A stretch of 64,000 nucleotides of DNA, from the NCBI GenBank assembly GCA_028715175.1, contig JAQUSJ010000001.1, positions 71,760 to 135,759 on the forward strand, in the 5' to 3' direction. This stretch comes from Candidatus Daviesbacteria bacterium. GTDB lineage: Bacteria; Patescibacteriota; Microgenomatia; Daviesbacterales; UBA10151. The position numbers were made by a program, and so were the translations under genes. Below, one piece after another: positions 36,019-63,360 of this stretch; position 1 is the first letter of the stretch, and each line of letters begins with the position of its first letter. The notes under the pieces were generated by a model. That model did no database searches and was not told where the DNA came from. It saw only the letters and a program-made list of their open reading frames with translations.

Positions 36019-36906
36019 CTAAATCTTAAATATCTTTTTAGCATTCTCCGTAGTTTGATTAGAAACCGTTTCAAATGTGATTCCTTTGAGATTAGCGATC
36101 AGACGGGCAATTTCTTTGACGCTAGAGGGTTCATTCCTTTGGCCACGTTTACTTTGGGGAGCGAGAAACGGGGAATCGGTTTCTAAAAGGATCCGTTCTA
36201 AAGGGATAATTTTGGCGGCTTCCCTTAAGTATTCATTTTTGGGGTAAGTGATATTAGCTGCAAAAGCCACTAAAAAGTTAGTAGTCTGTAGTAGGTAGTT
36301 GGTAGTTTGGGGAAGACCGGAATAGCAGTGATAAACTCCAAAATGATCTTTGGTCATATCAATAGCAGTTTGCCAGCATTCGGAATTTTCAGGATTTTTT
36401 GAGCGGTCATCACGGCAATGAACAACTAAAGGCAGATTTAATTTTTTGGCCAAATCAATTTGGGCCTGAAAAAGTTTTTTCTGGAGAATTTTAATCTGGT
36501 CTGGTGGAATAGATGGAGGAGTGAAACCAGGATTGCTGTTAAAGAAAAAATCCAGCCCACATTCTCCAATCCCAGCGACCTTTTCTGAATTACTTCTATA
36601 AATCTCTTCTAATTGGGTTATATCGTTTACCAAATCCTTTTGTACGTTTGTACCACGATCGGAGGATGTTTATGATTGTTGGTATTTAATTGCTTCGTGC
36701 GGATGGATGCCGATAGTGGAATATACTGATAAACCTTTAGGCCATTTAGTATTTTTAGCCTGATTCAAAGCTTCCTTGCTTTTTTCAATATCTACTCCAA
36801 TGTTGATGATTGCAGAAATTCCGCTATCTAAAGCTCTTTGGATTACTTCATCAAAATCTTCTTTATATGATTCCCAGTAAAGATGGGCATGTGTATCAAT
36901 TAACAT
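36019..36906 (-). pseudogene. tatD: TatD-family hydrolase interrupted by a single in-frame TAA (fragments 36670-36906 and 36019-36633)
   Basis: N-terminal fragment 'MLIDTHAHLY...IGIHPHEA' and C-terminal fragment '...AGIGECGLDFF...ETDSPFLAP' are in the same frame, separated by TAA plus 12 codons. The C-terminal fragment also contains heptamer repeat 36280-36310. Confidence 0.55.
36280..36310. repeat. Heptamer array (GGTAGTT-like), in frame in tatD (encodes 'PQTTNYLLQTTNFL')
   Basis: 'gtagtctgtagtaggtagttggtagtttgg'. Confidence 0.7.
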
Positions 36907-36926
36907 ATACGAGCGTTATTCTTTCC

Positions 36927-36988
36927 TGTCATCCTGAGGCGATTAGCCGAAGGATATGATTATATTCTTCACTTCGTTCAGAATGACG
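36927..36988. repeat. Palindromic repeat element, GTCATCCTGAGCG family (intergenic tatD/metG)
   Basis: 'tgtcatcctgaggcgattagccgaagga...cttcgttcagaatgacg' imperfect inverted repeat. Confidence 0.75.
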
Positions 36989-36998
36989 ATTCTCTTCA

Positions 36999-38420
36999 TT
37001 AAATCCTTGGAAATAGAGGAGGTTGCGATTTAATAGCTCCGGAAAATTGTTTTAAAATTTTTTCGGAAGTTTCGGGTAAAAAAGGTTGTAATTTTAGGTT
37101 TAGATATCTAATTGCGTCTACTACAACTTGCATAACATTGATTAAATTTTGTCCTTTGAGTTTCCATGGTTGTTGATTATTTATATAATGGTCAATGATT
37201 CTTATTTCATCCCATATTAATTTTAGCGCTTCATCAAATCTGTAATTTTCCAAAGCCTTTGCATATAGAGTTGTTATATCTCCTGACGTTGTCGGTATAC
37301 TTGTTACAAGTTTGTTTATTGAGGGATTATTGTCCGAAATTGTTATGTTTTCGCAGAGTTTGGCAACTCTTGCCACTAAGTTCCCTAATCCATTTGCTAA
37401 GTCTGCATTATATAAGCGATCAAGAGCATCCCATGAAAAATCGCCATCTTCACCAAATGGAAATGCAGCCAGCAAAACATATCTAGTTCCATCTACACCG
37501 TATTTTTCTACTAATTGATCTGGACTAATTACATTTCCTAAAGTCTTAGACATCTTTTGTCCATTAACAGTAAAAAACCCATGTGCGAAAATTTGTTTTG
37601 GTAGTTTTTCGTCAATTGCCAGAAGCATTGCCGGCCAAATTATTGCATGAAACCAAAGAATATCTTTGCCTACCAAGTGAAGATCTGCCGGCCAAAAATT
37701 ATTTTGCGATCCATAAGTATAGTAATTAATTAAAGCTTCTATCCAAACATAAGCTGTGTGAGAGCAGTCAAAAGGTAGTGGAATTCCCCATTCAAGATTC
37801 GCTCTTGAAATAGAGATATCCTCCAAACCCTGTTTGATTTTACCCAGTATTTCGTTTTTCCTTGATTGCGGACTAATTTTAATTGTGTCAGAAGTGATTA
37901 GTTGTTCTAACTGTTTTTGATAAGCTGTTAGTTTAAAGTAGTAATTCTCTTCTGAGTGTTCGATTGGTTTGGTTTGGTGATCAGGACACAAACCGTTGAC
38001 TAATTCTTCCGGCGACATAAATTTTTCATGCCCTACACAATACAATCCCTTATAAAGTCGGGGTTTAGCATCAATTGCGCCCTTATCGTAAAGTTTCTGT
38101 AAAAATTTCTGTGCCATTTTTATGTGATCTTCATCAGTAGTTCTAATAAATCTAACAAAATCAATATCTAATTTCTCCCAAGCTTGTTTGAATTCTTCTG
38201 AAATCTTATCAGCATAGTCCTTAGGTTGTTGATTATGTTTTTTGGCTGCTTCAGCTATTTTTGCACCATGTTCATCAGTGCCAACTAATAATCTGGCATC
38301 GTAACCTTTGCATTTCCAGTAACGGGTTAAAACATCAGCTGCTACTGTAGGATACGCATGGCCGATGTGGGGGACATCATTAACATAATAAATTGGAGTT
38401 GTAATAAAAAATTTATTCAT
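36999..38420 (-). CDS. metG: Methionine--tRNA ligase (compact form)
   Basis: 'PIYYVNDVPHIGHAY' (HIGH) and 'KMSKTLGNVISP' (KMSKS). Confidence 0.85.
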   Translation of the reverse strand: MNKFFITTPIYYVNDVPHIGHAYPTVAADVLTRYWKCKGYDARLLVGTDEHGAKIAEAAKKHNQQPKDYADKISEEFKQAWEKLDIDFVRFIRTTDEDHIKMAQKFLQKLYDKGAIDAKPRLYKGLYCVGHEKFMSPEELVNGLCPDHQTKPIEHSEENYYFKLTAYQKQLEQLITSDTIKISPQSRKNEILGKIKQGLEDISISRANLEWGIPLPFDCSHTAYVWIEALINYYTYGSQNNFWPADLHLVGKDILWFHAIIWPAMLLAIDEKLPKQIFAHGFFTVNGQKMSKTLGNVISPDQLVEKYGVDGTRYVLLAAFPFGEDGDFSWDALDRLYNADLANGLGNLVARVAKLCENITISDNNPSINKLVTSIPTTSGDITTLYAKALENYRFDEALKLIWDEIRIIDHYINNQQPWKLKGQNLINVMQVVVDAIRYLNLKLQPFLPETSEKILKQFSGAIKSQPPLFPRI

Positions 38421-38788
38421 AGTTTCTTCGTCAGTTTAGGGATTTTTGATAATTTAGTCAATTTATGTTTTTTAATTTTCCTAAAATAACTGAAAAGTAA
38501 ATAAGTGGCAGCAACAGTTAATAGAGCAGTTACAATATTTAAAGTATCCAAAGCTTTAAGGATGAGTAGAAAAATGAGACCTAAAGAGAAAGAACAAGAA
38601 GAAAGAATATTTCTTAAAAAGATATTAAGAGTAAATATTAATGCCAAATATAAAGGAGTCAAAAATAGAATCAGCTGAGTATAATTTGCCTGGGTTAGAC
38701 TTTCAGGGTATGGTACTTGTAAAACCACAAATATAAAAATCCCCCAAAAAAACAAAACAGAAATAATTTTTGGAAAAACTTCAGGCAT
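38417..38788 (-). CDS. Hypothetical membrane protein
   Basis: 123 aa with 3-4 TM segments. ATGA overlap with metG. Confidence 0.3.
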   Translation of the reverse strand: MPEVFPKIISVLFFWGIFIFVVLQVPYPESLTQANYTQLILFLTPLYLALIFTLNIFLRNILSSCSFSLGLIFLLILKALDTLNIVTALLTVAATYLLFSYFRKIKKHKLTKLSKIPKLTKKL

Positions 38789-38802
38789 ATATCAATTGTA
38801 AA

Positions 38803-40974
38803 CTAAACTCCCGCCATTTCAAAAGTGGATCCCATGGAATTTTTGGAAACTTCGATCCGGACTGGGAATTCTTCTTTTAACTCTTCAATATGGGTGATAA
38901 CTAAAATTTTTTCAAAATCCCCTTTAATTGCATCAATTGCCTCAACCAGCTTAGCTCTTCCCGGTGCATCTTGAGAACCAAAACCTTCATCGATAACTAA
39001 AAATTGTAGTTTTGCTCCGGCCCGATGGGTAAGCAGTTTTGAAATAGCCAGTCGGACGGCAAAATTAACCCTAAAGGCTTCACCACCCGAATACATCTCA
39101 TAAGGTCTTTCACCCATTTCATCCGAAATAATAATATCCAATGTTTCTATGATGCCTTTTTCTCCGCTATCTAATTTAGTTTTTGTTTCCCGCTGGGTCA
39201 AAAGAGTAATCTTCATTCTTCCTTCTGTAAGTTTTTCTAAAAGTTTATTTGCCTCATCCTCAATTTCCGGAATGGCTCCCTCAATAATCATTGCCTGAAT
39301 CCCTTTTTTACCAAAAGCTAAAGCCAGTTCCTCAAAAGTTCCTTTTTCTTTTGCAAGTTTAGATTTTTCATCTGATTTTTGTTTTTTTAAGTTTTCCATC
39401 TGAGCAGTCCGGGAGATAAGTTCATTAATTTGCCCCAGCATTCCTTGAGCCTCTTTTTCTTCTGTTCGTAATTTTGCCATTTCCTGTTCTGCTTCATTGA
39501 TTTCAAGGTTAACTTTGGATAGTTTTTCAGGTAAATCAGATGGAAGTGCTACAATTTCTCTTTTCAGAGTATCGACCTGGGCTTTTTTATTTACAAACAT
39601 TGCCCGCATTTCCGAAACTACCTTTTCTTCGCTTGCAAGGGTGGCCTGAATTTTTAACATTTGTTCTTTGTCGGCTTGGGCCTTTTCCAAACCCTCAAGC
39701 TTTGTACAAATATCAAGATATTTACTTTGGTCGAAGACAAAATTTTTTAATGTGCTTTCTATTTTTTTGATTCTTTCTTCTTCAATAGCAAAATCTATTT
39801 CTTTTAAACTTTTTTGTAAAACTTGGATCTGGTCTGTTATGTTTTTGTGGACATGTTCCTTTTCGGTTTTGCCGATTTCCTGTCCGCAAGTAGGACACTT
39901 GGCCCCGGATATTTTAGTTTCTTTCAACTGGCTGTTTAATTTTTCTATTTCATTTTTAAACTGCTCTGATTTTTGTTTTTTCAAATTAATTTGTCCTAAA
40001 ATATCTGAAAGCTCTTTTTCTAACTCCATCCTTTTTTGTTTTATTTCATCCAGTTTATTCTTCTCACCTTGTAAATCTTTTAATTCTGAAAGTTCCGCGG
40101 TTACTTTATTTAACTTACTCAACTCTTCTTTTAAGGATTCAATTTTAAATTTGCGGTTTTTACCCTGGAAAATGATTTCTTCCAGCTCTTTTTTATTTTG
40201 CAGGAAATTTTGTTCTAATTTTGTTTTTTGTTCATTTGCTATTTTTAGAGTTTCGCGTTTATCTTGTAAATTTTTAATTTTTTCTTGCAGAGTTTTTATT
40301 TTTTCTTCAACTTGAACAATAGTTTCTTCTGCCACTCTTTTCTTCTCACTCCTTTCTTCTTTTTGGGAAAGCTCTGCTTCTATTTCTAAAGTCTGGTATT
40401 CCAAAAGTTGGAGTTTGCTTTGGATCTCTTTTATTTTTTCTTTGGCTTTCTCTTCCAGTAAGTCATAATGGGACAACCCTAAAATATCTGCCAGGATTCT
40501 TTTTCTATCGGTCGGGCCTTTGGTGGTAAATTCATCCGCATGACCCTGGCGGAGGTATGAAGAGTTGGTAAAGGTTTCAAAAGTTAAATGCAAACAGTTG
40601 ATAATTTTTTCTTGGGTGGCTTTTATTGTCCCCTCTGTTAGGTTATGTGATCCGGCTGCGCCGGACCAAAATTCCAAAGTAGTGGAACCGCCACCTTTTT
40701 TGACACGTTTTCTTTCCAGTCTATAAATATTTCCATCTAATTCAAAAGAAAATTCAACACTCATCTCATTAGCGCCTGAGTGGATTAAAGAATCGGCAGA
40801 ATCACCTGCCCGCGATACTCCCCAGATGCACCAGGTGATGGCATCCAAAAGCGATGATTTGCCGGCTCCGTTTAAGCCGGATATAGCAGCCAGTTTAAAT
40901 TTGGTAAAGTCCAACTCAGGCGGATTATCAGCATAACTGGTGAAATTTGATAATTTTAATTTTACCGGTATCAT
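38803..40974 (-). CDS. sbcC: SbcC/Rad50-like ATPase with zinc hook
   Basis: Walker A 'GLNGAGKSSLLDAITW', a long coiled coil with 'CPTCGQ' hook, and the C-terminal signature/Walker B 'LQFLVIDEGFGSQD'. Confidence 0.8.
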   Translation of the reverse strand: MIPVKLKLSNFTSYADNPPELDFTKFKLAAISGLNGAGKSSLLDAITWCIWGVSRAGDSADSLIHSGANEMSVEFSFELDGNIYRLERKRVKKGGGSTTLEFWSGAAGSHNLTEGTIKATQEKIINCLHLTFETFTNSSYLRQGHADEFTTKGPTDRKRILADILGLSHYDLLEEKAKEKIKEIQSKLQLLEYQTLEIEAELSQKEERSEKKRVAEETIVQVEEKIKTLQEKIKNLQDKRETLKIANEQKTKLEQNFLQNKKELEEIIFQGKNRKFKIESLKEELSKLNKVTAELSELKDLQGEKNKLDEIKQKRMELEKELSDILGQINLKKQKSEQFKNEIEKLNSQLKETKISGAKCPTCGQEIGKTEKEHVHKNITDQIQVLQKSLKEIDFAIEEERIKKIESTLKNFVFDQSKYLDICTKLEGLEKAQADKEQMLKIQATLASEEKVVSEMRAMFVNKKAQVDTLKREIVALPSDLPEKLSKVNLEINEAEQEMAKLRTEEKEAQGMLGQINELISRTAQMENLKKQKSDEKSKLAKEKGTFEELALAFGKKGIQAMIIEGAIPEIEDEANKLLEKLTEGRMKITLLTQRETKTKLDSGEKGIIETLDIIISDEMGERPYEMYSGGEAFRVNFAVRLAISKLLTHRAGAKLQFLVIDEGFGSQDAPGRAKLVEAIDAIKGDFEKILVITHIEELKEEFPVRIEVSKNSMGSTFEMAGV

Positions 40975-40975
40975 A

Positions 40976-42169
40976 TTAGTTTTCTAAAAGCGCTGCGGCG
41001 TAATTTTCCAGTTCCTTTTGTTTGCCAGGGGAATATTTTTTTGCTTCAAAGTATTTTTTTAAAGCAGCAATAGGAGTTAAACTTTCTACATCTTTTCCTA
41101 AATCGATTTTTTCCCTTTCAACTTTTTCAATGTTTCGGGAAATTCCAGCTAAAATATGAGCGGAAGATAGTGCTTTTTTAATTTTGTCCATCTCAATATC
41201 TTTATCCAACTCTGCCGGTATATTTATTACCAGCCGGATAATTTTATCAGCAAGAGCGCACTTTTTAATTTCATCTAATACTATTTGGGTTGGGTCAAGA
41301 TCTGTAGTTTTTAAATTAACAGTAACTGTTAAAAATTTTCTTGCTCCTGAGGGAATAAATTTATAGCTTGTTTCAAATTTATCTGACGACTGACGACTGA
41401 TAGCTAATATCTCGACTATTATAAAACCTTTTTCTTCTTTCTCTTCGCCGAAATCTATCCGCTCTGGAGAACCGGAGTAAACAATTAGTGGTCCGGCACC
41501 TGCCGGACTAGAAAGAACTTGATGTTTGTGAATATGGCCTAAAGCCACATAAGAGATCCTTTTATCTTGAAGAAGCGGCAGAGGAATTGTGATATCGTTT
41601 CCGATAGCCAGTCCCTTTTCCGACCCAAAAACTGAACCTTCAATTTCGGCATGCGAGGCCAGTATTGCAGGTCCGCCAGCTGGCGGAGGCTTAATTTTTT
41701 CATACATAAGTTTTAATTTTTCGGCAACTTGCTTGTAGTCATTTTTATGGAGCCAGGGAAGAGTAATAACTTGTAAATTGCCGGATTTGGTCTTAATTTG
41801 CAAAAGTTCCGGAAATCTTGAAACCCAGACATTTTCTATCTCCAGGGCAGAGTAGATATCCAAAGTATTGGCTTTGCCTTCTGCATTTGGAGTGTCATGG
41901 TTTCCCACCACCAGCACAACAGGGATTTTTTTGGCCAGTATCTTAATTCTTTCTCCAAATCCCCGCTGTTGGGTGGGGTTTGGATCTCTGGTTTTATAGG
42001 CATCTCCTGCAAAAATGACTGCGTCAACCTGCTCTTCAAAAGCTTTTTCCACTATAAAATCAAAAGTCTTAAAAAAGTCGAGTAATCTGGTAGAAAGTCC
42101 GGTTTCCGGATCCAACCTGGTATAATTTTCCATACCAATATGCAGGTCGGAAAAATGAAGTAGTTTCAT
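40976..42169 (-). CDS. sbcD: SbcD/Mre11-like nuclease
   Basis: 'LLHFSDLHIG', 'GDAYKTRDP' and 'GNHD' calcineurin-like phosphoesterase motifs. It contains the in-frame repeat at 41383-41409. Confidence 0.85.
   Translation of the reverse strand: MKLLHFSDLHIGMENYTRLDPETGLSTRLLDFFKTFDFIVEKAFEEQVDAVIFAGDAYKTRDPNPTQQRGFGERIKILAKKIPVVLVVGNHDTPNAEGKANTLDIYSALEIENVWVSRFPELLQIKTKSGNLQVITLPWLHKNDYKQVAEKLKLMYEKIKPPPAGGPAILASHAEIEGSVFGSEKGLAIGNDITIPLPLLQDKRISYVALGHIHKHQVLSSPAGAGPLIVYSGSPERIDFGEEKEEKGFIIVEILAISRQSSDKFETSYKFIPSGARKFLTVTVNLKTTDLDPTQIVLDEIKKCALADKIIRLVINIPAELDKDIEMDKIKKALSSAHILAGISRNIEKVEREKIDLGKDVESLTPIAALKKYFEAKKYSPGKQKELENYAAALLEN
41383..41409. repeat. Repeat 'ctgacgactgacgactgatagctaat', in frame in sbcD (encodes 'ILAISRQSSDK')
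   Basis: Same family as 10530-10560 and 9886-9924. Confidence 0.8.
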
Positions 42170-42189
42170 CGGGGAGATTATATCATTGC

Positions 42190-43353: not shown

Positions 43354-43388
43354 CATTAATATTACGACCGTAGCATTAATGTTAACCA

Positions 43389-43968: not shown

Positions 43969-43972
43969 GGAA

Positions 43973-47220: not shown

Positions 47221-47223
47221 TGT

Positions 47224-47271: not shown

Positions 47272-49257
47272 TCAGGCGTTTAACCAGTCATCTTCGTCAA
47301 TTGAGTTTGATATATCACTTGCTGTATTGGGTTGATCTTTGTCTCTGTAATTTGTATTACTACTGATCAAGTTTTCCGGAATGTCTATTAAGAATCTGGA
47401 AACCAGGTTGTTGCTTCGTGTACCAAAGTACAATCTTTGCCCGGTATAAGTTAAATAAAGTTTTTCTTTGGCGCGGGTGATGCCGACATACATAAGTCTT
47501 CTTTCTTCTTCCAGTTCCCGGACATCCAGCATGGATCTGGAGTGAGGGAATAAACCTTCTTCCATGCCAACCATGAAAACAATTGGGAATTCCAATCCTT
47601 TGGCGCTATGGAGAGTCATTAAAGTTACGGCATCAACCGGCTGTTTGCTGTTAGTTTTTCGCTTTTGACCAGGTATGTTGCCGTTTTCCACCAGAGCCAC
47701 TTTTTCTAAAAACTCTGTTAAATCAGAGAACTGTTCCGCAACCGAGCGAAGCTCTTTAACATTTTCCGCGCGCATTTTGCCTTCTTCGCTGCTGTCATCA
47801 AGATATGCCAAATACCCTGTTGCCTGTAGGATTTTGTCTAAAAGTTCTAAGGTAGTGTAAGGCAGATTGTCATTCTGAGGCGGAGCCGAAGAATATAAAT
47901 TAGATCCTTCGTTGTCGCTCAGGATGACAGAGCGAAGCTCTATCGCTTTTGATAATCTGCCTTTACCAATTTTTTCGGCTCTCTTTAAAGAAATAGAATC
48001 TTCGGGATTTTGGAGTAAACGGAGATAGGCGAGAATATCCTTAATTTCTTTTCTGGCATAGAAGCTGACCCCGCCTACTAATTTATAAGGTATGCCGACT
48101 TTCAGGAATTGTTCCTCCAGAGCCCGGGATTGGGCATTAGTTCTGTAAAGAATAGCATATGAGTTTAGAGTTCGTAGTTCGTAGTTCGTAGTTTTTTTGT
48201 CTTTACTATGAACTAATAACTCTGAACTATGAACTATTTTGTCTACGACAAAATTAGCTTCTTCAACCTCATTTCTTGTTTCAACTACCTCTATTTTTTC
48301 TCCTCCATCTTTCTTGGTCCAGAGTTTTAAGATGGGATGAGATTTATTTTTGGAGATGACAGCAAAGGCAGCATCCAGGATATTTTGAGTGGAACGGTAG
48401 TTTTGTTCCAGATTAAAGATCGCTACATTCGGATAATCCTTTTGGAAATTAACAATATTGCGAAAATCTGCTCCTCTAAACGAGTACACACTTTGGCTTG
48501 CGTCCCCCACAACACAAATATTTTTATGGCGGTTACTCAAGTATTTTGAAATCAGATATTGAGCAGGATTAGTATCCTGGTATTCATCAATTAAAATATA
48601 CTTAAATTGAATTTGGTATCTGGTTAAAATTGCTGGTTCGGCTTGGAATAATTTAATTACATATAATAATAAATCATCAAAATCCAGAGCATGGTTTCTT
48701 TCCAGAATTTTTTGATATTCCAAATAAATTTTCGCTACAATTTCCTGAAAATAACCCCGGGCATATTGAGGGTATTCTAAAGAAGAAATTAATTCATTTT
48801 TTGCCCCTGATATAGTGGATCTAACAGAAAAAGGAGAAGTTTTTTGAAGCGGGATATTTAAATTACCCATAGCTTCTTTGACAGCATCCAAAGCATCACC
48901 TTCATCATAGATAGCAAAACCGGGAGGCAACTTCAAGACTTTGCCGTCCCGGCGCAAAACCCTGGCGCAAAAACTATGAAATGTTCCCATCATTGGTTCG
49001 TGGTTTGCTGCCAGCGGTTCATTGGCCAAAAGTTTCCTGATACGTTCCATCATCTCGCCGGCCGCTTTATTAGTGAAAGTCAAAACCAGGATATTTTCCG
49101 GAGGAATTTTCTTTTCGGAAATTAAATAAGCCACCCGGTAGGTTAAAACTCTGGTTTTGCCTGAACCGGCTCCGGCCAAAATAAGAGTCGGACCCTCAGT
49201 TGCTTTAACAGCTTTCTGTTGTGCGGGATTTAGATCATTTAAAAGAGAATTGGGCAT
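47272..49257 (-). CDS. pcrA: UvrD/PcrA-family ATP-dependent DNA helicase, carrying three in-frame repeat insertions
   Basis: 'LILAGAGSGKTRVLTYRVAYLI' Walker A plus helicase motifs. It contains repeats at 47866-47930 and 48163-48240. Confidence 0.85.
   Translation of the reverse strand: MPNSLLNDLNPAQQKAVKATEGPTLILAGAGSGKTRVLTYRVAYLISEKKIPPENILVLTFTNKAAGEMMERIRKLLANEPLAANHEPMMGTFHSFCARVLRRDGKVLKLPPGFAIYDEGDALDAVKEAMGNLNIPLQKTSPFSVRSTISGAKNELISSLEYPQYARGYFQEIVAKIYLEYQKILERNHALDFDDLLLYVIKLFQAEPAILTRYQIQFKYILIDEYQDTNPAQYLISKYLSNRHKNICVVGDASQSVYSFRGADFRNIVNFQKDYPNVAIFNLEQNYRSTQNILDAAFAVISKNKSHPILKLWTKKDGGEKIEVVETRNEVEEANFVVDKIVHSSELLVHSKDKKTTNYELRTLNSYAILYRTNAQSRALEEQFLKVGIPYKLVGGVSFYARKEIKDILAYLRLLQNPEDSISLKRAEKIGKGRLSKAIELRSVILSDNEGSNLYSSAPPQNDNLPYTTLELLDKILQATGYLAYLDDSSEEGKMRAENVKELRSVAEQFSDLTEFLEKVALVENGNIPGQKRKTNSKQPVDAVTLMTLHSAKGLEFPIVFMVGMEEGLFPHSRSMLDVRELEEERRLMYVGITRAKEKLYLTYTGQRLYFGTRSNNLVSRFLIDIPENLISSNTNYRDKDQPNTASDISNSIDEDDWLNA
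47866..47930. repeat. Palindromic repeat element, GTCATTCTGAGGCG...CGCTCAGGATGAC, in frame in the helicase gene (encodes 'SVILSDNEGSNLYSSAPPQNDN')
   Basis: Read directly. Confidence 0.85.
48163..48240. repeat. Two adjacent heptamer arrays, (GTTCGTA)x3 and (TATGAAC)-like x4, in frame in the helicase gene (encode 'IVHSSELLVHSKDKKTTNYELRTLNS')
   Basis: Read directly. Confidence 0.8.
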
Positions 49258-50716: not shown

Positions 50717-51964
50717 GTGGATAATTTAAGGCCCTTAAGGTTAGGCAAAAGCGAAAAAGATAATCCCTTGAAGGTTAGAAGAGTAAGGCAGGCGATTAAA
50801 AAATTATTGCCGGTACTAATCGTAGTAGGAATTTTAATATCACTTGCCATTTTTCTAACGACTTTGTCGGGAACCAATTCCTATGTTTCTTCCATTATTT
50901 CTGGTACCGCACTCAAAAGTACTGATGGCAGGGTTAATATTTTACTGTTGGGAATAGCCGGCGGGACCCATGAGGGACCAACTTTAACAGATACGATTAT
51001 GGTTGCCTCATATAATCTTAAAACCGATCAGGTTTATCTTTTTTCTATTCCCAGGGATTTATGGCTGCCTTCTTTTAAAAGCAAAGTAAATGCAGTGTAT
51101 GAAATTGGTCTTTCGCAAAATAATGGTTTGGGGCTTTCTAAAACTGTCATGGGTAATATTTTAGGTTTGCCTATTCACTACTCTTTAAGAGTAGATTTTA
51201 GGGGTTTTGTACAAGCAATTGACACAATAGACGGAATAGATGTAGCAGTTGAAAAGTCTTTTGATGATTATCTATACCCGATTCAAGGGAAAGAAGATGA
51301 CCTTTGTGGAAATAGCGAGAAAGAGATGGAATTTAGTGAAGAAGAAGCAAAAAAATTAAATATTGATCCTGGTAAAAGAAAAGTTCTAATCAATCCTGAA
51401 GGACAAATCGCCACAGATGCGGCAGAAGAAGATAAAGGAATTAAATATTTTAGTTGTAGATATGAACATATTAGTTTTAGTCAGGGTAAGATGCATATGA
51501 ATGGGGCAGTGGCCTTGGCTTTTGTCAGGTCAAGACATGGTACAAACGGTGAGGCATCAGATTTTGCCAGGTCAAAAAGACAGCAAAAAGTGATTGAGGC
51601 AGTCAGGAGTCGATTGCTATCTTTAGAAACTCTCTCAAGCCCTCAGAAAGTTTCGGATTTAGTTAAAACATTAGGTAAAAGCATAGACACCGACATTTCT
51701 ATAAAAGATGCACTTGAATTCTATAAATTGTCTCGCAAAATCGGCAAAATTCACAGTTTTATTTTAGATGCTTCTCCAAAATCAGGTTTATCAGACAATG
51801 TAACTTCTTTGTTGATTAATCCTCCGCGTGATGAGTATGGAGGCGCTTATGTTTTGATATCTCAAGATGATGACTTTTCTATTATACAAGGATATGTTAA
51901 AAAGATACTCGAAGGGCAAATAACAGAATATGAAGCTACTGGTGCTGCACGGACCGGCAATTGA
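50717..51964 (+). CDS. LytR-CpsA-Psr (LCP) family cell-wall glycopolymer transferase
   Basis: TM anchor, 'NILLLGIAGG', 'DTIMVASYN' and 'FSIPRDLW'. Confidence 0.8.
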   Translation: MDNLRPLRLGKSEKDNPLKVRRVRQAIKKLLPVLIVVGILISLAIFLTTLSGTNSYVSSIISGTALKSTDGRVNILLLGIAGGTHEGPTLTDTIMVASYNLKTDQVYLFSIPRDLWLPSFKSKVNAVYEIGLSQNNGLGLSKTVMGNILGLPIHYSLRVDFRGFVQAIDTIDGIDVAVEKSFDDYLYPIQGKEDDLCGNSEKEMEFSEEEAKKLNIDPGKRKVLINPEGQIATDAAEEDKGIKYFSCRYEHISFSQGKMHMNGAVALAFVRSRHGTNGEASDFARSKRQQKVIEAVRSRLLSLETLSSPQKVSDLVKTLGKSIDTDISIKDALEFYKLSRKIGKIHSFILDASPKSGLSDNVTSLLINPPRDEYGGAYVLISQDDDFSIIQGYVKKILEGQITEYEATGAARTGN

Positions 51965-52580
51965 AGCTTCCAGAAGGAAATTAGGAGAACTGCGCAAGAA
52001 ATTTGATCCTGATAATGTTGTAGTTTTTGATGCTCAAGCAAGTTCAGGACAAGTAATTGCCAATTTAATGACGGTTCCTATGTTTTCCGAGGAAAGGTTG
52101 ATTATCTGGGAAAACCCAATTGATGTTTTTGAACCACCAACTACCAACTACCAACTACCAACTACTCTAATCCTATGGTTTGATCATATTATAGATACAA
52201 AAAAATGGCCGGGGTTTGAATACCTGTTTTTCCCGGAAAGTAAAGAAATTTCCGTATTTCCATTTTTGGATTATTTGGCAGCTCATGATAAAAAAGCTTT
52301 CTTAGAAGTGGAGAAATTAAAAAAAGCAAATTTCGATGTCCACTATCTCATAACTATGGTTTTTTATCTGTTGCGGAATTTGGTAGTTACTCCTAAAACC
52401 GCGCCTCCCTTTGTTAAGCAAAAACTTGCCAAACAAAGAAGTAATTTTAGCAAAGAAAGATTAATAAATCTTTACAGGGATATTTTAGAAATTGAATTTA
52501 AAATTAAGTCAGGTTTATTGGAAAAAGACCAGGCAGAATTTTTACTGGTTAATAAATTCATTGGGAGCCTAATGATTTGA
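51930..52580 (+). CDS. holA: DNA polymerase III delta subunit-like protein
   Basis: 'LLVLHGPAIEASRRKL...LMTVPMFSEERLII' resembles the HolA N-terminus. It contains heptamer array 52133-52170. Confidence 0.4.
   Translation: MKLLVLHGPAIEASRRKLGELRKKFDPDNVVVFDAQASSGQVIANLMTVPMFSEERLIIWENPIDVFEPPTTNYQLPTTLILWFDHIIDTKKWPGFEYLFFPESKEISVFPFLDYLAAHDKKAFLEVEKLKKANFDVHYLITMVFYLLRNLVVTPKTAPPFVKQKLAKQRSNFSKERLINLYRDILEIEFKIKSGLLEKDQAEFLLVNKFIGSLMI
52133..52170. repeat. Tandem heptamer (ACTACCA)x4, in frame in the holA-like gene (encodes 'PPTTNYQLPTTL')
   Basis: Read directly. Confidence 0.85.
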
Positions 52581-57002: not shown

Positions 57003-57026
57003 GTTGAATTTGCTACAATACCCTCT

Positions 57027-58862
57027 GTGAATATCAGAAATTTCTCAATTATTGCTCATATTGACCACGGTAAATCTACTTTGGCAGACAGGCTGCTGGA
57101 GATTTGCCATACGGTTCCACCGGATAAAATGAAGCCGCAGCTTTTAGATTCTTTGGCGCTGGAGCGTGAACGTGGTATTACTATAAAACTTGCTCCTGTA
57201 AGATTGAAATACAATTTAGACGGTGTGGAATATGTCCTAAACCTGATTGATACACCGGGACATGTTGATTTTTCTTATGAGGTTTCCAGAGCTCTGGCAG
57301 CAGTTGAAGGCGCAATACTTTTAGTAGATGCAACCCAGGGTATTCAAGCGCAAACTTTGGCACACGGTTTGGCAGCTCTAGAGCAAAATTTAACGTTAAT
57401 TCCGGTAATAAATAAAATTGATTTACCGAATGCGGATATTGAATCAACAAAAAAACAACTTATAGAAACATTCGGATTTGCAGCAGAGGAGATATTGCTA
57501 GTGTCAGGCAAGACTGGTCAGGGTGTGCAGAAGCTTTTGGAAATAATAATTGAAAAAGTGCCTCCGCCTAAAATAGATCTTTTGTCACAAAGCTTCTCAG
57601 GACTGCAAGTCCTTCGGGCTCTTGTTTTTGATTCGTTTTTTGACAGCTTTAAAGGGGTGGTTGCCCAGGTACGAATTGTTGAAGGCCAGACACCAAAAAC
57701 TCAAGCCCCGATTATTTTTCTGGGGACTAAAGCTTCGGGCCATATCCTGGAAACCGGATTTTTTGCTCCTCAGCTTATTCCAAATAACGGTCTAAAAGCA
57801 GGAGAGATAGGTTATATTGCCACAGGCATTAAAGAGCCGGATTTAGTCAGAGTTGGTGATACAATAACAAGTTTATCGAATATCGAATATGGTACATCGG
57901 AAGACAAAAACGATAACCGATTAACGATAAACGATATACAACCTTTGCCAGGTTATAAGCAGGTTAAACCAATGGTTTTTGTGGGACTTTTTCCCATAGA
58001 CGCTGACGAGTATTTTGAATTGAAAGAAGCTTTGGCTAAATTTAGATTAACTGATCCTGCTTTTTCTTATACTCCGGAGCAATCACGAGCTTTAGGAGCC
58101 GGTTTTCGATGCGGGTTTTTAGGGTTACTTCATGCAGAGGTGGTACAGGAGAGGTTACTAAAAGAATTTAATGTCGATCTTTTGGCGACTGCTCCGTCAG
58201 TTGAATATTTGCTGGATAGAAAACCTATTATTTCACCAAGCGATTTGCCGCAAGGAACCAATATCAAGAATTTAGAAGAACCATGGGTAAATTTAAGGAT
58301 TTTTGTACCACAAACTTATATCGGTTCGGTTATGGAATTAGTACAAGATAAGAGGGGTAAGTTTTTAAACATGCAGCACTTTGGGATCCAAGTTGAACTG
58401 TTGTATGAGATGCCGCTTTCTGAGATGGTGACTAACTTTTATGATAAATTAAAATCAGTTTCTTCCGGTTTTGCTTCCCTGGACTGGGAGTTTTTGGATT
58501 TTCGGGAAGCGGATGCGGTCAGGGTAGATATTTTGGTTTCCGGGGAAAAAGTAGATGCTCTCTCAACTATTGTTTTTAGACCTAAGGCGGAAAGTTTTGG
58601 CAGGAGGATGGTGGAAAAATTAAAAGAAGTGCTGCCTCGGCAAAATTTTACTATTGCAATTCAAGCTGCTATTGGCGGGACTATTATTGCCAGGGAAACA
58701 GTCAGTCCTTTCAGAAAAGATGTTACAGCTAAACTTTATGGAGGAGATAGGACCAGAAAAGACAAACTTTTGGAAAAACAGAAAAAGGGTAAAAAGAAAA
58801 TGAAGACGATCGGTAGGGTACAGATACCGCAGGAAGCATTTTTAAGCGTTTTAAAATCTTAA
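57027..58862 (+). CDS. lepA: Elongation factor 4 (LepA)
   Basis: 'IRNFSIIAHIDHGKSTLADRLL', 'DTPGHVDF' and 'NKIDL' G-domain motifs, plus the LepA C-terminal domain. Confidence 0.95.
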   Translation: MNIRNFSIIAHIDHGKSTLADRLLEICHTVPPDKMKPQLLDSLALERERGITIKLAPVRLKYNLDGVEYVLNLIDTPGHVDFSYEVSRALAAVEGAILLVDATQGIQAQTLAHGLAALEQNLTLIPVINKIDLPNADIESTKKQLIETFGFAAEEILLVSGKTGQGVQKLLEIIIEKVPPPKIDLLSQSFSGLQVLRALVFDSFFDSFKGVVAQVRIVEGQTPKTQAPIIFLGTKASGHILETGFFAPQLIPNNGLKAGEIGYIATGIKEPDLVRVGDTITSLSNIEYGTSEDKNDNRLTINDIQPLPGYKQVKPMVFVGLFPIDADEYFELKEALAKFRLTDPAFSYTPEQSRALGAGFRCGFLGLLHAEVVQERLLKEFNVDLLATAPSVEYLLDRKPIISPSDLPQGTNIKNLEEPWVNLRIFVPQTYIGSVMELVQDKRGKFLNMQHFGIQVELLYEMPLSEMVTNFYDKLKSVSSGFASLDWEFLDFREADAVRVDILVSGEKVDALSTIVFRPKAESFGRRMVEKLKEVLPRQNFTIAIQAAIGGTIIARETVSPFRKDVTAKLYGGDRTRKDKLLEKQKKGKKKMKTIGRVQIPQEAFLSVLKS

Positions 58863-58865
58863 TTT

Positions 58866-59837
58866 ATGAAAATAATAAAACCTGCAAAACTTTGTCTAGG
58901 AGATACCATTGGGATTGTGGCTTCATCTTTGCCAGTCCTTGATACCCATAAAGAGAAATATCAAAAAGGGAAAAAGTTGATTCAGGAAATGGGTTTTAAG
59001 ATTAAAGAAGGGAAAACTATTGGCCAGAAGAGATGGTGGATGGCAGGAACCCCTAAAGAGGTAGCCCAAGATATAAATTCCATGTTCTTAGATAAACAGA
59101 TTAGGGCAATTATGGCTCATACTGGAGGATATTCTGCAATCTCGGTGATAGAACATTTAGATTATGGTTTGATAGTCCAAAATCCAAAACCATTTATTGG
59201 GATGTCTGATACGACTATTTATCATCTGGCGATTTTTGAAAGATGCGGTATGGTGGGATTCCATATGGATGATTTAAGTTATGGATTCGGCAGGGAATTG
59301 AAGGAAGGAATGGAAAACTGGCCTAAGCTAAACCAAGAACTATTTTTGAAGTTTCTAACCAAAACTCAAGCTCCCGGAATAATAAAACCAATCACTGAAT
59401 GGGAAGAATGGAAAAAAGGGCAAGCTTCTGGCCATTTGATGGGAGGAATTTTAGAAAGAATTTCTACATTATCCGGTACAAAATATTTTCCTAATTTGGA
59501 TTTGTTTGAAGGTGGTGTGTTATTTTGGGAAGAAATTGGTAAAGATTTATCAGAAATCTACCAATATCTTTATCAGCTAAAAAATATGGGGATTTTTGAA
59601 AAAATAAACGGGATGTTGATTGGAAAAATTAAATATTCCAAACCGCTGAGACAACAAGTAGTAGAACCTACCCTAAAAGAAATGGTCTTGGAAATTTTGA
59701 AAGATTATAATTTTCCTATCATGGCTAATATGGATTTTGGCCATTTTACCGTCAATATCCCCATGCCAATTGGTATCAAAGTTTCTTTTGATACTGCCAA
59801 AAAAGAATTAAAATTTTTAGAAGGAGCAGTTGTTTAA
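58866..59837 (+). CDS. ldcA: LD-carboxypeptidase (S66 family, muramoyltetrapeptide carboxypeptidase-like)
   Basis: 'LCLGDTIGIVASS' and 'IRAIMAHTGGYS' Ser/His-containing blocks. Confidence 0.75.
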   Translation: MKIIKPAKLCLGDTIGIVASSLPVLDTHKEKYQKGKKLIQEMGFKIKEGKTIGQKRWWMAGTPKEVAQDINSMFLDKQIRAIMAHTGGYSAISVIEHLDYGLIVQNPKPFIGMSDTTIYHLAIFERCGMVGFHMDDLSYGFGRELKEGMENWPKLNQELFLKFLTKTQAPGIIKPITEWEEWKKGQASGHLMGGILERISTLSGTKYFPNLDLFEGGVLFWEEIGKDLSEIYQYLYQLKNMGIFEKINGMLIGKIKYSKPLRQQVVEPTLKEMVLEILKDYNFPIMANMDFGHFTVNIPMPIGIKVSFDTAKKELKFLEGAVV

Positions 59838-60486
59838 TATGAATAAAATTAAAGCAGTGCTTTTTGATATGGATGGACTGATGGTGGACACTGAACCTAT
59901 ACACCTTCGGGCTTTTAATTATGCACTGGGGAAATATGGCAAACATTTAACAGAGGAGGGAAATACCAGAAGGTATATTGGAACTCCTGATATTGATGGA
60001 GCAAAGGATATGGTGTTGAGATTTAGTTTACCTATATCTGCTCAAGAGCTTGTTATGGTTAAGAAAGCAAGGGTTAAAGAACTGCTGACAAGTCTAGAAC
60101 CAGAACCAGGTCTAATTGAACTGCTGGCAAACTTGAAGCAAAACGATTACAAAGTTGCAATTGCTTCCAGTTCTTACTTAGAAACGATAAGAAAAATTAT
60201 TCAAGATCTGGGAGTTGCTAAGATGATTGATAAATTAGCTTCTGCTGAAGAAGTCAAACAAGGTAAACCAGCACCTGATGTGTATTTACTAGCTGCAGAA
60301 AAATTAGGGGTAAGCCCTAGTGAATGTTTAGTGCTAGAAGATGCACCAAAAGGAGTTCAAGCAGGCAAGTTAGCTGGAATGAAAGTTTTTGCAATTCCCA
60401 GTCAGTACACAAAAGATGGGGATTTTAGTTTGGCAGATAAAGTATTGAGCAGTTTGTCTGAGGTGTTTGATTTAATTAACCTCTGA
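59830..60486 (+). CDS. HAD-superfamily hydrolase (beta-phosphoglucomutase-like subfamily IA)
   Basis: 'AVLFDMDGLMVDTE' motif I and 'VLEDAPKGVQAG' motif IV. Confidence 0.75.
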   Translation: MFNMNKIKAVLFDMDGLMVDTEPIHLRAFNYALGKYGKHLTEEGNTRRYIGTPDIDGAKDMVLRFSLPISAQELVMVKKARVKELLTSLEPEPGLIELLANLKQNDYKVAIASSSYLETIRKIIQDLGVAKMIDKLASAEEVKQGKPAPDVYLLAAEKLGVSPSECLVLEDAPKGVQAGKLAGMKVFAIPSQYTKDGDFSLADKVLSSLSEVFDLINL

Positions 60487-61231
60487 TAATTTTACAACTG
60501 GGACATCTTAGGGATTCTGCCTCATAAATTTTGGCGACTTGGTTTGATAATTTAAAGATTAATTCTGATCCCTCGTCAACTTTAAAAATATCAGGATTAT
60601 TGTCAAAAGACAGAGTGGCAGCTCCCCTAACCAATTTAAAAGTAGCTGTATCCTCATCCTTGAAAAAAACAGCTGGAATTTTTTCAGTAGTATTGTTAAA
60701 AGCTAACCCCCAACCTTTTTTAAAAGTTTGTCCGGTGATGCTTTTAAAATAACCGGTGGAGCCAAAAGGAGTAGATAAAACTATTCCGTCTCCAATGAAA
60801 AGCTGATTATTTATAGATCCTTCGACTCTCCGGCTTCCGCCGGATCGCTCAGGATGACTCGTTTCGCTCGTCACCTGGAAACGGATAGTATGTATAGGTT
60901 GGGCATTCCTGATGACAAAATCATTTAATGCTGTAAATGTCTGATATAAAATTGTAGTTTCCAGCTTTTTATACTCTTTTGTTTTTAACCCTCCTTCAAG
61001 CAGGCGCTTTAATAGAGTTTTTTCATCATGTTCGGGACATTTTTTACAAACGGAACTGGCCCTAATAGGTAATTTGGGAATTCCCGGATAAATTCTTTCT
61101 GAATACAAAAGAGTACCGTCTCCACCATAACTTATGATTACGTCAGGATTGGAATGAACTATTTCAAAACCGAAGCTTTTTACAAGCCCTATTATGTTTT
61201 TTGCATTTTTACCAATTAGTAATGTTTTCAT
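60476..61231 (-). CDS. nadK: NAD kinase, with an in-frame palindromic-element insertion
   Basis: 'GGDGTLL' and 'GSTGY' motifs. The inserted element is translated as 'ETSHPERSGGSRRVEGSINN'. Confidence 0.8.
   Translation of the reverse strand: MKTLLIGKNAKNIIGLVKSFGFEIVHSNPDVIISYGGDGTLLYSERIYPGIPKLPIRASSVCKKCPEHDEKTLLKRLLEGGLKTKEYKKLETTILYQTFTALNDFVIRNAQPIHTIRFQVTSETSHPERSGGSRRVEGSINNQLFIGDGIVLSTPFGSTGYFKSITGQTFKKGWGLAFNNTTEKIPAVFFKDEDTATFKLVRGAATLSFDNNPDIFKVDEGSELIFKLSNQVAKIYEAESLRCPSCKIIRG
60813..60860. repeat. Half palindromic element (GATCCTTCG...CGCTCAGGATGAC) in frame in nadK; 42 bp identical to 47224-47265
   Basis: Read directly. Confidence 0.85.
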
Positions 61232-61290
61232 AGGCTCATGATACTACAATTTCTATAAATATTTCAGGTATACTAAAATATTAAGTTTCT

Positions 61291-62529
61291 ATGGCACCTA
61301 AAATTTCACCATTTATAACCCTTAAAATTCCGGTTTTTAGGAATTTTTTATTCGGAACATTTATTTCGGAGATTGGCAATCAGATGCAAATAGTGGCGGT
61401 AGCATGGCAAGTCTATGAGTTGACCCGGAATCCCGCTTCGTTAGGTTTAATCGGTCTTGCGAATTTTTTGCCGGTGCTTGCCTTTTCTTTAATTGGAGGT
61501 TTGGTTGCAGATAAAGCAGACAGGAAAAAACTTTTAATTTTGAGCCAAAGCACTTTATCTCTGATCGCATTTATTTTGTTTTTTTTAACTGCAACTCATT
61601 TTATTAATCCATTGATAATTTATTTTATGCTGATGCTGAATTCAATTGCAGCTTCGTTTTCACTCCCCGCCAGACAGGCAGTTTTACCGAACCTGTTGCC
61701 TAAAAAGTTATTTATGAATGCTGTTTCCATACATACTCTGCAATTTCAATCCGCTGTTTTGATCGGTCCCGCTATAGCAGGGTTTTTGATAGGAGGATTT
61801 GGAGTAGCATCGGTTTATCTTTTGAATGCCGTTTCGTTTTTAATTTTTACTGGCAGCATCCTTACGATTAAGGTGCCGCTGAATTTAAAAACTGAAGCAG
61901 TTGAGTTTAACTTAAACTCGATTCTGGACGGGATTAAGTTTGTTGTATCCACCCCGATTCTATATTCAACAATGATATTGGATTTTCTGGCAACATTTTT
62001 TGGGACAGCAAATATTTTAATGCCTATCTTTGCAAAAGAGATTTTGCGTGTTGGTCCTGAAGGGTTGGGACTCTTGTATTCTGCGCCTGCAGTAGGAGCT
62101 GTTGTTGCGGGATTGTTACTATCTTTTTTCCACTACCACCGGCTTAAAAATCAAGGCAAGATGATTATTATTTCCATTATTCTCTATGGCGCGGCAACGA
62201 TCGGTTTTGGTTTGTCCAAAAATTTACCATTGTCTCTGTTTTTCTTAAGTCTGGCGGGATTCGGAGATATGATTTCTTCGGTTATCAGGAACACTATTAG
62301 ACAGCTTATAACACCGGATCATTTGCGGGGGAGGATGGTTTCGATTATGAGGATTTTCTTCCAGGGTGGGCCCCAACTGGGGGAAATTGAAGCAGGGTTT
62401 TTAGCAAAAGTCATCGGCGGGCCTGCATCGGTTGTGATTGGGGGAGTTGGGGTAATACTCATTACCTCCTTGATTGCCTGGCGGAATAAAAGTTTGAGAA
62501 ATTATCAGGGAAAAGAATTGGCGGTTTAG
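61291..62529 (+). CDS. MFS transporter
   Basis: 12-TM topology and 'GGLVADKADRKKLL' MFS loop motif. Confidence 0.7.
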   Translation: MAPKISPFITLKIPVFRNFLFGTFISEIGNQMQIVAVAWQVYELTRNPASLGLIGLANFLPVLAFSLIGGLVADKADRKKLLILSQSTLSLIAFILFFLTATHFINPLIIYFMLMLNSIAASFSLPARQAVLPNLLPKKLFMNAVSIHTLQFQSAVLIGPAIAGFLIGGFGVASVYLLNAVSFLIFTGSILTIKVPLNLKTEAVEFNLNSILDGIKFVVSTPILYSTMILDFLATFFGTANILMPIFAKEILRVGPEGLGLLYSAPAVGAVVAGLLLSFFHYHRLKNQGKMIIISIILYGAATIGFGLSKNLPLSLFFLSLAGFGDMISSVIRNTIRQLITPDHLRGRMVSIMRIFFQGGPQLGEIEAGFLAKVIGGPASVVIGGVGVILITSLIAWRNKSLRNYQGKELAV

Positions 62530-62567
62530 ACTCTTTAACCCGGACTAAATCAGAGTCTTGACAAGAA

Positions 62568-62594
62568 CTAGCAGTCGATGTAAACTACTGCTAG
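62568..62594 (+). promoter_or_regulatory. CIRCE-like HrcA operator (CTAGCAGTC-N9-TACTGCTAG), overlapping the promoter of hrcA (TTGACA at 62558)
   Basis: 8 of 9 positions form an inverted repeat with a 9-nt spacer. The core TAGCA..TGCTA matches CIRCE TTAGCACTC-N9-GAGTGCTAA. Confidence 0.55.
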
Positions 62595-62603
62595 TTTATT
62601 AGT

Positions 62604-63332
62604 ATGGCTGAACTTTCAGATCGACAACGAGCACTTTTAAAAGCAATAATAGAAGAATATATCGAGTTTGCCGAGCCGGTTGGATCTGAGATTATTGAAA
62701 GAAAATATAATCTGGGGGTTTCCCCTGCCACTATTAGAATTGAAATGGGACGTTTAACAGACAGCGGGTATCTCCGTCAGCCCCATACGTCTGCCGGAAG
62801 GGCGCCAACATCAACAGGGATGAGATTTTATATTGCTGAGCTGATGAACGAAAAACAGCTTCCAATTGCGGCTGAAGTTTCGATTAAAGAGAAACTGATG
62901 TCGCAAAGATATAAACAAGAGAGGCTTTTGAAAGAGGCTGTTTTATCGCTGGCCCAAAGGCTTGATATGTTAGGTTTGGTAATTGATGATGAAGGTCAAA
63001 TATTCTATGCCGGTGCGGCAAACATTTTGGATTGGCCGGAATTTTATGATATTGATGTGACCAGATTTGTTCTGTCGCTTTTTGATGAAAACCCCAGGTT
63101 ACAGGAAATTATCGGGAGGGCTGTCGGATCTGATCCGGTGCATATCTTGTTTGGCGAAGATATGGAATTTGAATATTTGCGGCCGACAAGCTTTGTTTTT
63201 ACAAAATATGATGCGAATGAAGGTAAAACCGGAGTGGTTGGGGTGATAGGTCCAGCCAGGATGAATTTCCCGCTGGTTTTGCCTTATGTAAAATATGTCA
63301 GAAATATGTTAACTGAAGCAATGAGAATTTAG
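62604..63332 (+). CDS. hrcA: Heat-inducible transcription repressor HrcA
   Basis: 'LSDRQRALLKAIIEEYIEFAEPVGSEII' winged-helix N-terminus. The operon continues into grpE-dnaK. Confidence 0.9.
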   Translation: MAELSDRQRALLKAIIEEYIEFAEPVGSEIIERKYNLGVSPATIRIEMGRLTDSGYLRQPHTSAGRAPTSTGMRFYIAELMNEKQLPIAAEVSIKEKLMSQRYKQERLLKEAVLSLAQRLDMLGLVIDDEGQIFYAGAANILDWPEFYDIDVTRFVLSLFDENPRLQEIIGRAVGSDPVHILFGEDMEFEYLRPTSFVFTKYDANEGKTGVVGVIGPARMNFPLVLPYVKYVRNMLTEAMRI

Positions 63333-63357
63333 TAGTATGTAGAATGTAGTAAGTAGT

Positions 63358-63360
<3 letters not shown>
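63330..63360. repeat. Heptamer array (GTAGTAT / GTAGAAT / GTAGTAA / GTAGTAT) between hrcA and grpE; the last unit supplies the grpE ATG
   Basis: 'tagtagtatgtagaatgtagtaagtagtatggg'. Confidence 0.7.

Follow-up and report, generated by a model that had tools for sequence, protein, structure and literature searches.

The 64-kb window analysed here (64,000 nucleotides of Candidatus Daviesbacteria contig JAQUSJ010000001.1, assembly GCA_028715175.1) is pervaded by short tandem arrays of 7-nt units, and this heptamer periodicity is non-random. The arrays are most likely heptanucleotide simple-sequence repeats (SSRs) of the short tandemly repeated repetitive (STRR) type, a class already described. 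Differences from the known cases lie in the lineage, the mostly intragenic and translated state in essential genes, the replacement of native segments at constant length, and an apparent concerted evolution at orthologous sites. We consider it probable that a slippage or template-switching bias toward a 7-nt register generates and homogenises the arrays, with selection deciding where they persist.

Tandem Repeats Finder (TRF) returned 45 rows for the window, 17 with period 7 (2.0-4.9 copies each). A uniform scan, which asked for 12 or more matches out of 14 at lag p, recovered 12 arrays at period 7 as opposed to one each at periods 6 and 8 and none at periods 9-12, and long exact period-7 runs were observed seven times compared to 0.2 in Markov shuffles. 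The window has a base composition of 38.5% G+C, is approximately 96% coding and belongs to a contig of 743,708 bp. A first-pass annotation of this DNA had cited four arrays, in three unrelated genes and at the start of grpE, all of which were located by sequence and by TRF. Its further 7-mer arrays were also found (1593-1642, 6531-6565, 6831-6857, 10709-10728 and 48205-48237), and the comparison of period 7 with periods 6 and 8 that it proposed is borne out in the window by the scan and the shuffles. The exact 7-nt periodicity it ascribed to the four arrays holds for two, the others reaching 80% and 81% matches, and its view that the arrays fit no described class gives way to earlier work, where heptanucleotide SSRs are over-represented in many bacteria (PMC4692102, PMC4679880).

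By Pfam, the genes involved encode TatD, a UvrD/PcrA helicase, a short DNA polymerase III delta (holA), HrcA and GrpE, and further arrays reside in the genes of TsaD, LepA and a metallophosphoesterase. Certain units recur within the window: an ACTAC core at four loci (common to the tatD, helicase 48169, holA and grpE arrays), CTGACGA/TCAGTCG at three and GTAACAA at three. The trinucleotides AAC, ACT and TAC are about two-fold above background in the units; the unit families are not independent, and no conclusion was drawn from this. Rfam and tRNA scans revealed no RNA gene at any array.

Inside open reading frames (ORFs) the arrays are read straight through. Since seven is not a multiple of three, successive units fall in three frames, resulting in peptides with a period of seven residues, as in AAC TAC CAA CTA CCA ACT ACC, which yields NYQLPTT. 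The tatD array has the peptide GLPQTTNYLLQTTNFL and encodes LPQTTNYLLQTTNFL; the helicase 48169 array has the peptide KKTTNYELRTLNS and encodes KTTNYELRT. Across the clade, 42 of 50 arrays (84%) lie within ORFs, a distribution that departs from the predominantly intergenic location of STRR-type repeats. This is the case despite a 2.5-fold higher density in non-coding DNA (0.35 versus 0.14 arrays per kb), because nearly all of these genomes is coding (93-96%).

The orientation of the coding arrays was also assessed. AACTAC(C/G) is indeed on the coding strand in all three coding arrays of the first-pass annotation; a special mechanism is however needless, as stop codons suffice. Every frame is used once three or more units follow one another, and the reverse units carry a stop codon (TAG in GGTAGTT and CGTAGTT, TGA in CGACTGA). 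Consistently, 19 of the 24 clade coding arrays with exactly one stop-free orientation have that orientation on the coding strand. In the helicase array at 48205, a T>G change in the third unit (AGAG for ATAG) removes a TAG that would otherwise be read in that frame.

Judging from alignments to solved structures and orthologues, both constant-length replacements and true insertions occur. The tatD array aligns nearly gap-free to the native helix following the HCxSG motif of solved TatD structures, the TsaD array at 10709 aligns gap-free to GLTASDI of solved TsaD, and the holA segment is no longer than in array-free outgroups, all congruent with native sequence having been replaced at unchanged length. 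The 21 nt proposed in the first-pass annotation as the minimum in-frame insert does thus not hold in general. On the other hand, the helicase exceeds PcrA (1pjr) by 4 amino acids (aa) in loop 1 and by 12 aa in loop 2, with the arrays falling at the alignment gaps; the 48169 array belongs to an insertion of 12-19 aa that PcrA and most orthologues lack. Likewise, LepA holds a true insertion of 16 aa built from two arrays, and TsaD one of about 32 aa (aa 122-157); the entire 129-nt stretch at 10455-10583 has a lag-7 match of 0.48. In holA and the helicase the arrays occupy coil or surface loops, in TatD the position of a helix. An AlphaFold model of holA based on 120 orthologues (mean predicted local distance difference test score 90.3) has strands at aa 56-61 and 78-83 joined by coil (aa 62-77), and the beginning of the second strand is encoded by the last array unit.

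Two further observations concern these genes. An in-frame TAA (36670-36672, minus strand) divides the tatD gene into two ORFs of the same frame, one N-terminal (78 aa, 36670-36906) and one C-terminal (204 aa, 36019-36633). The stop, which the independent Logan assembly L104 also shows, falls within some 12 additional aa (QQS*TSSDRGTNVQKD); the gene may be a pseudogene or split, or the stop may be read through. In addition, non-periodic G+C-rich or hairpin-forming insertions were detected in TsaD (aa 262-295, 10050-10151) and the helicase (aa 445-465, 47863-47925), for example ATCCTGAGCGACAACGAAGGAT. Relatives carry in-frame palindromic inserts in helicase loop 2 of L010 and L003 (CACCTCCGAGGTG...CACCTCGGAGGTG), in loop 1 of L011 and in loop 2 of L028 (L numbers denote the loci and assemblies used for comparison). 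These non-periodic inserts look like a second, different class of small in-gene insertion.

The holA array is informative on persistence. Periodic heptamer units occupy the orthologous site in 16 of 18 ingroup orthologues with DNA (within-array unit identity of at least 0.56), with units that vary by species: AACTACC in the window and L002, ACCCTAW in L028 and L084-L087, CAACTGT in L083, CAATTGT in L091, CCCTTGY in L001, and others in the remaining ingroup loci. Decay is far advanced in L081 and L010, and no periodicity is seen in the outgroups L006 and L056. In register, unit identity is 0.66 within an array and 0.44 by position between species, with 0.75 in the flanks and 0.31 in shuffles, and the lag-7 match is 0.68, compared to 0.30 at lag 6 and 0.31 at lag 8. 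The units in register share NNNNCTW, and the last one supplies the conserved Leu of the strand; this unit could serve as a selected master copy. The segment spans 24-25 aa in 100 of 120 orthologous proteins, without length classes shifted by 7 aa among the 120, and orthologue peptides display a 7-aa period (e.g. LPTTNYQLPTT and NYTLYPIPYTL). Hence, the hypervariable copy number that the first-pass annotation had envisaged is not visible between species.

In the helicase, the loop 1 site, decayed in the window, is a clear heptamer array in L001, L003, L004, L005, L008, L010, L028 and L030. The loop 2 insertion is common only to the window and L001, with different units (AACTACG versus ACTCTNN). 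All examined orthologues of the holA and helicase arrays read through in frame. Because orthologous sites keep a near-constant length but hold units that differ between species, the comparison indicates that the arrays probably undergo concerted evolution. Taken together, these data suggest that the arrays are old at their sites, homogenised internally and constrained in length.

The holA site is also subject to other changes. An element of about 25-28 nt interrupts the heptamer array in L095 (10231-10258) and L097 (~10215-10248), forming a clear hairpin in L095. It reads CCCCGACAAAGTCGGGGCAAGCTCTGCT in L095, and its GCAAGCTYYGCT motif occurs six times in 20 kb of this locus, including a tandem array with a 30-nt period (L095 12970-13190). 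About 13 of the 120 holA orthologues have an extra 5-14 aa at the array spot, several with ...ASSAY. The element is reminiscent of small dispersed repeats in Nostoc, which enter heptamer arrays there.

The hrcA-grpE junction sheds light on how an array may originate. Here the array fills the whole spacer, the first unit overlaps the hrcA stop codon TAG (63330-63332), and the last unit supplies, as the first-pass annotation had noted, the grpE ATG (63358); the start is backed by a conserved MGKKQ N-terminus in 120 orthologues. In relatives, the junction contains a single AATTATG in L101 (TAAAATTATG), AATTATG AATTAAG AATTATG in L099 and TAGCAAG TATTATG TATTAAG TATTATG in L100, whereas hrcA and grpE overlap in L098. 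This series argues for tandem multiplication of the local 7 nt including the start codon, not import of an element; the array, grouped with the ACTAC family in the first-pass annotation, derives from the local AATTATG and is no imported member of that family. The closest relative found, L102 (94.5% DNA identity over window 61452-63810, a 2.4-kb overlap), has no array but a spacer of 8 nt (TAAAGGAT) that includes an AAGGA Shine-Dalgarno-like motif, a difference of 17 nt. GrpE was the only protein searched with a relative above 90% identity. Compared with the window at 63811, a further 28 nt (TCCTCTTCCGCTAAAGCTTCGGAGGATA, inverted ends) are inserted in L102 immediately ahead of the grpE stop codon, altering the GrpE C-terminus (167 aa vs 158 aa).

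The lineage survey comprised 80 helicase-centred loci, with one genome per species. The eight closest loci (69-76% helicase identity) contain 25 period-7 arrays versus 9 with period 6 and none with period 8. Between 3 and 8 arrays each were present in other Microgenomates (L008, L016, L024, L068 and L071) and in a Bacillota-labelled metagenome-assembled genome (MAG), L059, with units including AAATTTC, CAATTTT and CAGCTRT. No arrays were found at about 60 of the 80 loci, within the Candidate Phyla Radiation (CPR) and elsewhere, among them L006 and L056, which are the closest relatives without arrays, and every Saccharibacteria locus. Since close relatives carry arrays and some 60 other loci none, the period-7 bias belongs to particular lineages, not to CPR genomes or low G+C in general.

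Individual lineages have their own favoured units. AAATTTC and CAATTTT are favoured in several Microgenomates (L016, L024, L068 and L071), and CAGCTRT occurs seven times in 22 kb of L059. One array of L019 (12396-12428) has the unit TGACCAA, which we take to be the reverse complement of the cyanobacterial STRR unit TTGGTCA. A Peptidase_S66 gene harbours a GTGATTT/AGGATTT array near its 5' end in L098 (7613-7644) and L099 (262-292), while the window orthologue (58866-59837) has no such array.

How could such arrays arise? Slippage or template switching is the likely generator, and the arrays are likely near-neutral. In this Daviesbacteria lineage and a patchy set of bacteria, replication slippage or template switching would favour a 7-nt register, so that whatever 7 nt lies at a site may be duplicated in tandem and a short array made in place. 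Selection (on stop codons, frame, segment length and structural tolerance) would then filter the sites, leaving spacers and unconstrained protein segments, and the orientation would be fixed as only units stop-free in every frame can be coding. Once established, an array would be long-lived at its site and be kept uniform through repeated misalignment and realignment between adjacent units. With protein length held by selection, native sequence may end up overwritten.

Several points weigh against this slippage model. Near-perfect arrays persist in essential genes although slippage by one or two units there would cause a frameshift and should be costly, and homogenisation seems to run without length change. 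Local duplication leaves unexplained why the ACTAC core recurs at four loci of the window and at least five of the clade, and the number 7 is not accounted for by the proposed mechanism. Furthermore, a metagenome scan with holA returned 14 loci with a best identity of 70%, and the nearest holA in the protein search had 74%; no same-species strain was among them.

The identical units at unrelated loci, and the different units at one locus across species, would also fit a sequence-specific writer, such as a mobile micro-element, a retroelement-like or primase/polymerase activity, or ectopic gene conversion, which installs or overwrites with a few preferred heptamers (ACTAC core, CTGACGA and GTAACAA); we hold this to be unlikely. 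Congruent with such a writer, the units are not abundant as single 7-mers (among 1171 classes, the ACTAC-type 7-mers come 266th and 839th), arrays take the place of native protein segments at unchanged length, the grpE-junction unit has apparently drifted toward the GTAGT core of the genome, and the phylogenetic distribution is patchy, as for TAACTGA repeats. The 44 arrays of the clade however fall into 28 unit families, and the four ACTAC-core arrays, when compared, have no flanking sequence in common and no defined ends. Moreover, the grpE-junction unit is clearly from the local start-codon context, the in-register holA units look related by descent, and annotated syntenic regions of relatives hold no reverse transcriptase or transposase. 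More generally, it is improbable, by our estimate, that a transferable lineage-specific activity (a replication/repair enzyme variant or an unrecognised element) overwrites unconstrained stretches at constant length with few units. If true, such a writing activity could underlie the patchy heptamer repeats of CPR bacteria, cyanobacteria, Beggiatoaceae and Xanthomonas, and would be a major source of lineage-specific protein segments in CPR bacteria.

Two more specific candidates of this kind were rejected. A mobile element with defined ends (MITE, SDR, REPIN or RPE type) is at odds with the lack of a conserved flank, a copy number that varies by locus and the local nature of the grpE array. Targets of a diversity-generating retroelement do not match the housekeeping hosts or the between-species variation, which is not restricted to adenines; no reverse transcriptase is present among neighbour genes in the precomputed annotation of syntenic relatives, the window itself was not searched for such an enzyme or for paired template and variable repeats.

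Alternatively, the arrays may be functional cis-elements in DNA or RNA, either sites for single-strand-binding or cold-shock-type proteins, or translational-coupling and spacer elements (the AUG-UAG units of hrcA-grpE), to which we assign a slim chance. Intergenic arrays immediately separate one gene's stop codon from the start codon that follows, and in the window every ATG of the grpE array except the start itself is directly followed by TAG. Translational regulation has also been speculated for TAACTGA repeats, and CspB binds heptamer repeats (PMC4679880). The unit sequences are nevertheless too diverse for one binding protein, most arrays are mid-gene in unrelated housekeeping genes, and the nearest relative, L102, manages with a normal spacer and its Shine-Dalgarno-like motif.

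Protein-level selection for flexible hydrophilic linkers (e.g. TTNYQLP), with the DNA periodicity as a by-product, is very unlikely, even though arrays are found at coil or loop positions, the residues T, N, Y, Q, L, P and S suit loops, and segment length is conserved. The repeat has a 7-nt period whose units are each read in another frame, and most arrays fall short of two 7-aa peptide periods; units within an array match base for base without synonymous scatter. Similar arrays are denser in intergenic DNA, and peptides at one site are wholly different between species. Selection for a repeat at the protein level is thus largely refuted by the nucleotide-level periodicity. Finally, that the arrays reflect chance or an assembly or sequencing artefact, as could be feared for short repeats in a MAG, which can mis-assemble, is practically negligible: Logan assembly L104, built from run SRR22315506, matches window 34955-38415 at 100% identity, tatD array included, arrays are present at orthologous gene positions in more than 20 other independent assemblies, all reading frames stay open, and period 7 strongly surpasses both the shuffles and periods 6 and 8; the concern about artefacts voiced in the first-pass annotation is thereby answered.

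The STRR heptanucleotide sequences were reportedly described by Mazel et al. in 1990 from heterocystous cyanobacteria; PMC4692102 refers to them as the Calothrix heptanucleotides. As in STRRs, the arrays reported here are tandem 7-nt units, with few favoured units at many dispersed loci of a low-GC genome and no known function or mechanism. STRRs are however mainly intergenic and often longer, whereas the present arrays are mostly intragenic and translated, have 2-5 copies and other units, and belong to CPR bacteria. In-ORF repeat units of Borgs are multiples of 3 nt, longer and fast-evolving. Borg repeats resemble our arrays in that DNA-level tandem duplication in ORFs makes new protein segments, which are disordered in Borgs (PMC9879509), but the units here are 7 nt, not divisible by three, read in three frames and stable in length, and do not match the Borg type. 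Contingency-locus SSRs (Haemophilus, Neisseria) similarly are non-triplet SSRs inside reading frames. They switch surface or variable genes on and off, however, while the present hosts (holA, UvrD/PcrA, TsaD, LepA and TatD) are essential housekeeping genes with mid-gene arrays and the examined orthologues are all in frame, and phase variation was rejected accordingly.

Among the long SSRs of many bacteria, heptanucleotide ones are reported to be the commonest, and slippage of the polymerase has been put forward as the reason (PMC4679880, PMC4692102). In the 2007 survey of Mrazek, Guo and Shah, as summarised in the two papers, period 7 stands out among periods 5-11 and is proposed to be a footprint of polymerase slippage; coding regions tolerated units that are multiples of three, in contrast to the non-triplet unit in essential genes found here, and the survey did not extend to CPR genomes. 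TAACTGA direct repeats occur in marine Beggiatoaceae, cyanobacteria and some Bacteroidetes (MacGregor 2015, PMC4679880). They share with our arrays one favoured heptamer per lineage, a patchy distribution, positions directly upstream of start codons, and stop codons in one orientation that limit coding placement, the reverse being translatable as a 7-aa repeat; they are overwhelmingly intergenic with one dominant unit, unlike the many, mostly coding units here. The GGGAATC repeats of Xanthomonas and GGGGAYT repeats of Nostoc (Rehm et al. 2015, PMC4692102) are likewise heptamer arrays preferring about 4 units, and 83% of the Xanthomonas arrays are kept in the same gene context between two species with varying sequence and length. 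Those units are G-rich and form G-quadruplexes, while coding-strand units here are G-poor without G-quadruplex potential, and the intragenic share is 7-11% for GGGAATC and 32% for GGGGAYT (PMC4692102), compared to 84% here. A literature search for heptamer or heptanucleotide repeats in CPR or Patescibacteria yielded nothing relevant.

Table 1. Heptamer arrays and associated segments in the window (positions of the 64-kb stretch).
Feature	Position	Strand	Description
Degenerate CTAGANN array	1593-1642		Intergenic; TRF period 14, 70% matches
AAGTAAC array	6531-6565		Left arm of inverted pair flanking 23S_rRNA_IVP gene
TTACTTG array (AAGTAAC unit inverted)	6828-6857		Right arm; overlaps 3' end of tRNA-synthetase gene 6853-9006
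TsaD insertion	10455-10583	-	aa 118-160; perfect (TCAGTCG)x4.6 at 10529-10560, then degenerate CTGA-type units
TsaD array	10709-10728	-	(AACAAGT)x2.9; encodes QVTSNKL
Two intergenic arrays	17432-17497		TCAGTCG x2.6 and CTGAAGA-type x4.3; between genes 15619-17382 and 17502-18812
GTATCAA array	20549-20577	+	x4.1, 77% matches; ORF 20415-21374
tatD array	36276-36307	-	Period 7, 4.6 copies, 80% matches, units AACTACC/TACTACA/GACTACT; C-terminal ORF 36019-36633
Metallophosphoesterase array	41383-41400	-	(TCAGTCG)x2.6; gene 40976-42169
Helicase array	48169-48193	-	Perfect (AACTACG)x3.6, 100% matches; UvrD/PcrA helicase 47272-49257
Second helicase array	48205-48237	-	ATAGTTC type; encodes IVHSSELLVHS
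Helicase loop 1	48988-49026	-	aa 78-90, ANEPLAANHEP; decayed array in window
holA array	52132-52165	+	(AACTACC)x4.9, 96% matches; holA-like gene 51930-52580; encodes PPTTNYQLPTT
Two LepA/EF4 arrays	57874-57936	+	TATCGAA x2.4 and AAACGAT x4.1; 16-aa insertion, aa 283-303
hrcA-grpE array	63332-63360	+	4.1 copies, 81% matches; TAGTATG TAGAATG TAGTAAG TAGTATG

Elsewhere in the window, the minus-strand ORF at 6563-6841 is a free-standing 23S rRNA intervening-sequence protein (IVP) gene (PF05635, E=1.8e-26), bracketed by inverted GTAACAA heptamer arrays (6532-6561 and 6828-6857) with 30-nt arms that are 70% complementary. In Coxiella, strain-variable GACAGAT heptamer repeats precede an ORF of the same kind that lies inside the 23S intervening sequence (PMC4990558). 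The IVP gene and its arrays may constitute a small cassette with an array-formed stem. We also identified an S-adenosylmethionine (SAM) riboswitch (RF00162, 49.7 bits) at 12956-13058 on the plus strand, just after the ORF at 11969-12904, while a tRNA scan of the window detected no tRNA gene.

The excess of heptanucleotides in bacteria has been known since the 1990s and was surveyed across genomes in 2007. The presence of array-bearing next to array-free close relatives (L006/L056, and L102 at one site) may make the cause of the number 7 and of the patchy distribution testable, through a presence/absence comparison in search of a responsible factor. For the CPR proteins themselves, the tracts will confuse alignment, gene calling and homology-based annotation. 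Aggregated, the findings illustrate that a non-triplet microsatellite can long inhabit essential genes, translated in three frames and replacing native protein segments, and that array turnover is an under-appreciated route by which protein loops and insertions arise and change.

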